DNA of 63,086 nt, the filler included, from Hausera hauseri (taxonomy: Eukaryota): NCBI GenBank assembly GCA_046269625.1. It is 13 parts of 13 records of this genome, joined end to end, with 100 filler letters (N's around TTAATTAATTAA, not from the genome) between each part and the next. Parts side by side here need not be neighbours in the genome. Positions count along the whole stretch, not along the records: positions 58,907 to 63,086 come from JBJURY010716770.1; 12 more parts are not named here. One strand, given 5' to 3'. This document shows, in pieces, positions 58,907-59,423 of this stretch. The translations under genes and the position numbers were made by a program. The notes under the pieces are model-generated. The model was not told the origin of the DNA and did not search any database. It was given only the letters and a program-made list of their open reading frames with translations. How positions within the stretch are numbered: the stretch's first letter is position 1; every line of letters begins with the position of its first letter.

Positions 58907-59423
58907 AGCATATCATACGGGCTTGAAGAGGAGAGTATGTCAGCCAAGTTACTTATCTGCTGTTTGATGTTGGCTGGGAGTAATAGAAGCAAACTGTTAG
59001 CCCGCAGAAAAGGATTGGTAATATGATTGGCTTTTAGCCATTGCAAGTGGAACTGCAGCCAGGTACGACTAAAATTTGATTCGTCTAAAAATAAGTCCGT
59101 GAATGGGAAATTGGGACATATGTTTGGTGTAGGATCGACAGGATGACGGCCTGATATAGTTTTTGTTAAGTGTTTGGTGGAAGGATCAAGGTTTGATCCA
59201 CCACGGATGCGAAAATGGACAGTGAGAGTAATGGAATATTTCTCGTGTGCAGAGGATGGAAAAGAGCCGTAAGGTTGCAGAATTAAACCGTTTTGCATAA
59301 GATAAAAATTAGAGGAGCCGAAATAAGAGGACAATTCGTTATAAAAAATATGAGGTGATTGTTTGTGTGTAGCCCTTAATGTGTGGAAATGTGTTATTAT
59401 AAAAAATGAGAAAGGAAAGGGGA
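58907..59423 (-). mobile_element. Ubiquitin-like domain fused to Gypsy-type Gag (copy C, open to contig end)
   Basis: Uninterrupted frame: IFYNELSSYFGSSNFYLMQNGLILQP...SITLTVHFRIRGG (GG ends 59197), then TWLQFHLQWL...FLRANSLLLLLP...SPYD. Confidence 0.85.

Follow-up and report, generated by a model that had tools for sequence, protein, structure and literature searches.

Decayed Ty3/gypsy-type elements of Hausera hauseri with a predicted ubiquitin-fold domain, ending in GG, between captured host gene pieces and Gag

The window analysed here is a stretch of 63,086 nucleotides from Hausera hauseri (GenBank assembly GCA_046269625.1), in which 13 contigs are joined by N-linkers. The genes found in it, with cadherin repeats, GPCR, Piwi and axonemal dynein, point to an animal. 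Three separate short contigs each carry one copy of a retroelement segment, located on the (-) strand of the contig at 58907-63086 (copy 1), on the (+) strand of the contig at 44030-48190 (copy 2) and on the (-) strand of the contig at 48291-53908 (copy 3). All three copies are broken. In copy 1 a predicted ubiquitin-like domain (59197-59421, -) ends in HFRIRGG, with the GG codons at 59202-59197, and is followed by a polar spacer and the N-terminal part of a DUF7041-type Gag (58907-59196, -), truncated by the contig end. The corresponding domain of copy 2 (47160-47365, +) ends in HFRICGG and contains two stops and a frame change, DFYPTHH and HFRICGG being read in different frames; the Gag behind it (47366-48188, +) is broken and shows a CX2HX9CX3C knuckle at the contig end. 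In copy 3 the domain (48948-49172, -) ends in IPKLRGG and contains one stop, and its broken Gag (48404-48947, -), matching the outside protein P0011 at 56% over 139 aa, is interrupted by another repeat at 48403. An 82-nt repeat, 95% identical between 48322-48403 and 20570-20651 of the window, provides the interrupting copy. The three GG tails end at 59197 (-), 47365 (+) and 48948 (-), as the initial annotation had placed them, and the strands that it quoted upstream of the GG (FYLMQNG, DFYPTHH and FSLFLNG) were also found in the window.

The frame leading into the GG contains one stop in 387 codons in copy 1 and one in 185 codons in copy 3; in copy 2, four stops are found within the 250 codons preceding the ubiquitin-like domain. 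The pattern [RK][LI]xGG occurs seven times among the 116,172 six-frame codons of the window, and three of the seven are these copies; together with a spacing of 31-45 residues to the Gag core, the GG motif ahead of Gag is more than chance.

A Pfam scan of the window pieces gave no match to a Gag family. HMMER searches with copy 1 over 1.84 billion representatives returned four matches, three of them true relatives (P0007, P0008 and P0009); the fourth, P0010, was dropped as a repetitive bacterial protein. A cluster look-up added P0011, P0012 and P0013, all outside relatives being proteins without DNA context. P0008, P0009, P0012 and P0013 match DUF7041 (PF23055) below cut-off, and an alignment of P0008 with P0018, a DUF7041 Gag of the plain kind, covers 249 residues at 29% identity (E 1e-22). 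The CX2HX9CX3C knuckle is present in copy 2 and in all five full-length relatives examined; it is doubled in P0008, P0009, P0011 and P0013 and single in the plain Gag P0018. Because of the DUF7041 matches and of this knuckle, the Gag label given at the start proved right, and the element, judged by its Gag sequence, is of the Ty3/gypsy CsRn1 type.

The ubiquitin-like leader is absent from the four plain DUF7041 Gags retrieved and from P0017, in which the C-terminal half of a family Gag lies behind an unrelated, bacterial-looking secreted front (PF19089); this protein, likely an assembly chimera, was excluded both from the counts and from the tree. The Gag tree splits leader-bearing from plain Gags with support 100/99, which shows little, since its rows were picked by similarity to the query. 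No further relatives were found among 75 candidates of a word-based protein search with copy 1, nor among 7,478 candidates of a longer protein search, which is a weak test because P0007 itself was missed by it. An Atlas search gave top scores of 0.86, with a DUF7041 cluster at 0.83, to be taken as leads only. No related loci were found in the viral or metagenome contigs searched. No pol was seen at the three copies, whose contigs end in Gag or whose Gag is interrupted.

The leader is about 75 residues long and ends in RxxGG; in the five family members measured, this end and the Gag core motif behind it are 31-45 residues apart. Strong divergence between copies, with retention of the GG, had been claimed from the window alone, and both points hold in the larger set: full-length leaders are 20-51% identical, and the GG is present in 3/3 window copies and in 6/6 outside proteins covering the region, from three clusters. 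The leader alignment has three invariant columns, two of which are the GG, and most of the conservation falls on the RxxGG tail. The residue after the GG varies (S, M or G) and is followed by a polar, variable spacer. Run X1, which may be the source sample, has a summed contig depth that cannot rank the parts of the element, and it gives weak hints only: the depth is about 11,000 at the GG motif against 600-1,100 beside it; a depth step is seen at the linker; across 37 rows, the GG codons have no listed difference; and differences fall on 1/34 places of the motif versus 17/99 elsewhere (p 0.04). Among differences common to several contigs, 8/18 are synonymous versus 24-35% expected, which is not significant.

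The best PDB sequence match of the copy 1 leader is SDE2 (8ro1_X), with E 0.023 over the last 46 residues and E 0.0015 when used as a profile, so that the comparison to SDE2 made in the initial annotation was apt. The P0013 leader has its best match in ISG15 (E 0.74), along 61 residues that do not include the GG; proteins with ubiquitin-like domains are thus the best PDB sequence match independently for two members. Descent of the leader from SDE2 is plausible on these sequence matches (E 0.0015-0.05). Searched alone against PDB, the copy 3 leader gave a sole match, to an unrelated protein. The low E-values obtained to polyubiquitin are only sums of weak C-terminal matches. None of the seven leader rows matched a Pfam ubiquitin family, for which divergence may be the explanation, and an Atlas search with the leader gave no usable match.

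Structure prediction with AF2 failed on the copy 1 leader (pLDDT 41, alignment of three rows). On the P0013 leader, with an alignment of six rows, two of them window copies and copy 1 among these, one model out of five reached pLDDT 85, the others ranging from 43 to 54, and displayed a beta-beta-alpha-beta-beta-beta order. Foldseek placed ubiquitin-family rows at the top for this model (TM about 0.6-0.7), and VIA aligned it to ubiquitin-family domains with Z 9.7 and rmsd 1.9-2.0 over 72-76 residues. The leader is therefore predicted to be a beta-grasp domain, with support that is good but not complete, as it derives from the PDB matches and from one confident P0013 model in five, next to the failure on copy 1 and the lack of a Pfam match. 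The ubiquitin-like fold proposed from the window is supported as a prediction made on a relative, the model for copy 1 having been unusable.

The leaders are preceded, on the same strand, by 1.8-3.1 kb of open frames containing pieces of host genes, which differ between copies. The upstream unit of copy 1 (59424-61216, -; 1.8 kb, a putative LTR or leader sequence) starts with TGTGGTGCC, has a GC-rich linker at its 3' end and contains open frames at 60855-60576, 60595-60326 and 60357-59473 (-). Its cargo shows a weak Cox20 match (E 0.018); against PDB the frames gave no match, and nothing was named beyond Cox20.

The unit of copy 2 (44139-47154, +; 3.0 kb, likewise a putative LTR or leader sequence) starts with TGTAGTGCC and ends in CCACA. 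Four captured pieces are found in it: a rhodopsin-family GPCR gene piece (44563-45122, +; PF00001, E 5e-15), a histone deacetylase domain with one frame change (45219-46189, +; PF00850, E 4e-35 and 1e-14), an MMACHC-like piece below the Pfam cut-off (46264-46476, +; PF16690, E 6e-5) and a Piwi-domain piece (46707-47018, +; PF02171, E 1e-12). The deacetylase domain covers positions 1-297 of the 298 in the profile and is intronless, as expected from an mRNA origin; the Piwi piece is read in the same frame as the linker and as the ubiquitin-like domain over its first half. An AT-rich, intron-like stretch of 104 nt (45091-45194, +; GT...AG) is located between the GPCR and deacetylase pieces. In-frame splicing of this stretch was considered and dropped, as its removal does not join the two pieces in frame.

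The copy 3 unit (49197-52254, -; 3.1 kb, putative and with approximate ends) is made up of a 5' GC-rich hairpin, cargo and a GC-rich linker. It includes an axonemal dynein heavy chain piece (50218-51113, -; PDB DNAH3, E 6e-19 for 50745-51113; PF17852, E 0.01) and a GNAT_acetyltr_2 piece (49510-50049, -; PF13718, E 4e-24), which we take to be of the NAT10 type. The named cargo is one frame change off the leader frame. Among the outside relatives, P0007 (996 residues) and P0011 (1051 residues) have a single uninterrupted frame that holds a cold-shock piece of Rrp44 (Rrp44_CSD1), a CNOT1 piece, the leader and Gag, with the GG at 704 and 706, respectively; for P0011 the cargo names are from Pfam only.

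Open frames of at least 60 codons cover 97, 91 and 70% of the upstream units of copies 1, 2 and 3 on the Gag strand, versus 10, 56 and 23% on the opposite strand, with unit ends set by the analyst from a TGTRGTGCC motif, and the sense cover was reached in 0/200 resamplings of each unit. All named cargo matches are on the Gag strand, and only one of 30 antisense frames has a Pfam match, a sub-threshold DUF. The cargo is not all one frame, because AT-rich UTR-like and intron-like stretches are present in it. Kilobases of captured host coding sequence lie ahead of the leader, which is an internal spacer and not an N-terminus; this changes the reason for a ubiquitin-like domain to be there. On this point the initial annotation, which had the domain as the N-terminus of Gag, was not upheld: there is no Met at the domain start, and the frame continues far upstream.

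TGTRGTGCC is found six times in the window, with 0.29 expected, a statistic which is partly circular since the motif was derived from the window. On the Gag strand it precedes copy 1 by 1.8 kb and copy 2 by 3.0 kb; in copy 3 an exact occurrence on the opposite strand forms one arm of the hairpin. In copy 2 it opens a GC-rich module of about 110 nt, which two other contigs share at 72-81% (33345-33455 and 24796-24899, both -). Behind the module at 33455 come open frames on the same strand, of 224 codons and less, with no Pfam match, and no linker, leader or Gag occurs before a Polinton-like piece, so that it is possibly a solo or truncated unit. Two of the 5' modules have a hairpin z of about -2. 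At the other end, each upstream unit terminates in a GC-rich linker, the one of copy 2 in CCACA.

On these contigs no 3' LTR, second direct repeat or target-site duplication was found. A 12-base tRNA-Trp primer site motif gave 22 matches at three mismatches against 23 expected, and none between linker and leader, in copies which are decayed and whose LTR end is not fixed. Since pol, a 3' LTR, a target-site duplication and a tRNA-Trp primer site were not found, LTR is a label that we infer: the upstream unit, with its TG start and probably a CA end, is likely an LTR with the cargo inside. Several other possibilities were discarded: priming at the TGG of the GG codons, immediately behind which the copies differ; self-priming, for which the best complement was 6-8 nt long; hairpins in the linker, with z from -0.6 to +1.0; and a hammerhead, tRNA or other Rfam RNA in the element.

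The CX2HX9CX3C Gag knuckle is the signature of the CsRn1 clade (CsRn1, PwRn1, AgCR) of Ty3/gypsy LTR retrotransposons (PMC2582038). The elements described here share with it this knuckle and a DUF7041-like N-domain, but differ in the doubling of the knuckle in full-length relatives, in the ubiquitin-like spacer and kilobase cargo that precede Gag, in the size of the upstream units (1.8-3.1 kb versus LTRs of 381 bp in PwRn1) and in the tRNA-Trp primer site, not found here with a 12-base motif on decayed copies. SDE2 is made as a precursor cut at GG-K by Ubp5/Ubp15 (PMC9508853). The divergent ubiquitin fold, the precursor and the GG end are alike; however, SDE2 requires GG-K, while here S, M or G follows and then Gag instead of Sde2-C, and SDE2 is a host splicing factor, whereas the leader is part of a retroelement.

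The closest working analogy is found in cytopathic pestiviruses. In BVDV CP Rit, a captured S27a-ubiquitin is cut by host hydrolases, which frees NS3 (PMC8310069), and the order of host mRNA piece, ubiquitin and viral protein is the same as here. In that RNA virus a near-intact ubiquitin is captured case by case; here, in contrast, a diverged domain is fixed and inherited in a retroelement lineage and it is the cargo ahead of it that varies. Multi-gene host capture is known from LTR template switching, and LTR-mediated retroposition and maize Bs1 likewise yield partial, often multi-gene, sense-strand pieces of host mRNAs (PMC5131818). In these cases captures replace part of internal ORFs, whereas here they precede a gag that stays intact, are fused to it in frame and are followed by a predicted cut site. 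The Burro elements of planarians are gypsy-like too and contain extra host-like domains, including a Ubi2/SUMO-like motif (PMC6431247), but their Gag is N-terminal, their internal domains are fixed and, in the portions of the source used, no GG spacer precedes Gag. Shuffling hotspots in Drosophila affinis have been ascribed to ectopic recombination (bioRxiv 10.1101/2025.10.28.685065). In the literature covered, outside of which lie most subscription papers, Repbase and Dfam, no description was found of a GG-ended ubiquitin fold before Gag or behind host cargo.

The reading that we consider probable, with room for others, is that these are decayed copies of a Ty3/gypsy-type element with a CHCC Gag, in which cargo, GC-rich linker, a predicted ubiquitin-fold domain ending in GG and Gag were set in one frame, and that a host deubiquitinase likely cuts after the GG and frees Gag from the cargo. 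Pieces of host mRNAs would be taken up into the 1.8-3.1 kb unit by template switching during reverse transcription. Translation would start at an AUG inside the cargo, because no start codon is conserved ahead of the domain: the Met distances ahead of the GG are scattered (91, 80, 136, 97, 136 and, in one case, none within 150). A host deubiquitinase would then cut after the GG, by analogy with SDE2 and with the pestivirus S27a-ubiquitin, leaving an identical Gag N-terminus whatever precedes it, so that new captures would be tolerated as long as the frame stays open. The released part, made up of cargo and ubiquitin-like domain, would probably be degraded. Release of Gag by a host deubiquitinase is the most likely function of the leader; the variable residue after the GG suggests that the aim would be removal of the cargo and not a particular new N-terminus.

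Transcription or translation could also start within the GC-rich linker, making the domain in effect N-terminal, as the initial annotation had it; the cargo would be left untranslated in the LTR and the cut would only set the first residue of Gag. We regard this as unlikely but as the strongest of the alternatives. It agrees with an in-frame Met 80-97 codons ahead of the GG in copy 1, copy 2 and P0011, and with the UTR-like or intron-like nature of part of the cargo; yet P0008 and copy 3 are without such a Met, and the Met positions differ. About 630 open codons across several gene pieces in P0007 and P0011, and the strand bias of the open frames, would be left unexplained, and the residue after the GG varies (S, M, G), versus the fixed K of SDE2.

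Somewhat less probable still is a domain that stays uncut on Gag and serves for docking to the proteasome, ESCRT or deubiquitinases, or as a decoy. Many beta-grasp domains are indeed never cut, domains of this kind come up with tied scores in the fold searches, and Burro elements hold their SUMO-like motif within the polyprotein (PMC6431247). Against a docking role, conservation is focused on the RxxGG tail, with a variable polar spacer after it, and an uncut Gag would bring hundreds of arbitrary residues into the capsid; the ESCRT, proteasome and decoy readings, proposed earlier from the window, found no specific support here.

The cargo might instead be kept mainly for anti-silencing, through small RNAs or dominant-negative fragments directed at Piwi, HDAC, CNOT1 and exosome genes, the spacer having evolved to permit this; we think it improbable as the main reason for the cargo, although it is compatible with cleavage. 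Piwi, HDAC, CNOT1 and Rrp44-type pieces are among the eight named cargo pieces, a count for which no background was computed, and telomeric elements of Drosophila target piwi, aub and nxf2, which they have captured (PMC13534243). On the other hand, the GPCR, dynein, MMACHC and GNAT pieces are off this theme, genes that Pfam can name are conserved genes, and the cargo differs between copies. Chance or artefact, i.e. truncated elements beside host pseudogene pieces or chimeric assembly, is very improbable: the contigs are short, P0017 looks chimeric and no cargo-linker bridge was seen among the run X1 contig pieces listed (best 8 of 510), but three contigs and the outside proteins have the layout in common, several unrelated genes adjoin on one strand, and a common 5' motif (6 found versus 0.29 expected) bounds the cargo.

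LTR elements that capture host mRNA normally lose their own genes. With release of Gag by a deubiquitinase, a built-in site for a host protease would allow continued capture at the front end without harm to the capsid protein. This would amount to a heritable use of ubiquitin processing by a retrotransposon, matching the trick of the pestiviruses; it would supply new domain combinations and would mark deubiquitinases as control points for mobility. A bolder extension is put forward tentatively, and we would sooner bet against it than for it: an LTR lineage without a start codon of its own, in which each copy would take both its translation start and its leader from pieces of host mRNAs exchanged within the LTR, while a constant cut site of ubiquitin fold would leave Gag unaffected by whatever is captured. 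Such a lineage would be a standing exon-shuffling engine, producing GG-ended mosaics of host domains, some of them aimed at silencing genes.

The window contains further features. On the copy 1 contig, outside the copy 1 unit and on the opposite strand, a piece of another retrotransposon (61867-63084, +) matches the retroviral aspartyl protease PF00077 (E 3e-6). An RTE-type LINE frame of 1088 codons, apparently unbroken by eye, is present at 16163-19429 (-). Three segments (28885-31830, 1285-1809 and 3073-3582, all -) resemble, by eye, the protein-primed DNA polymerase B of Polinton/Maverick elements. A frame of 341 codons at 40121-41146 (+) displays rolling-circle Rep and helicase-like motifs by eye and is followed by two more frames; in Pfam it gave a weak DUF match only. 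A near-perfect hairpin at 39813-39883 (+) has a sub-threshold Rfam miRNA match (E 0.021), and a protocadherin-like exon of 754 codons, recognized by eye, is located at 5635-7899 (+).
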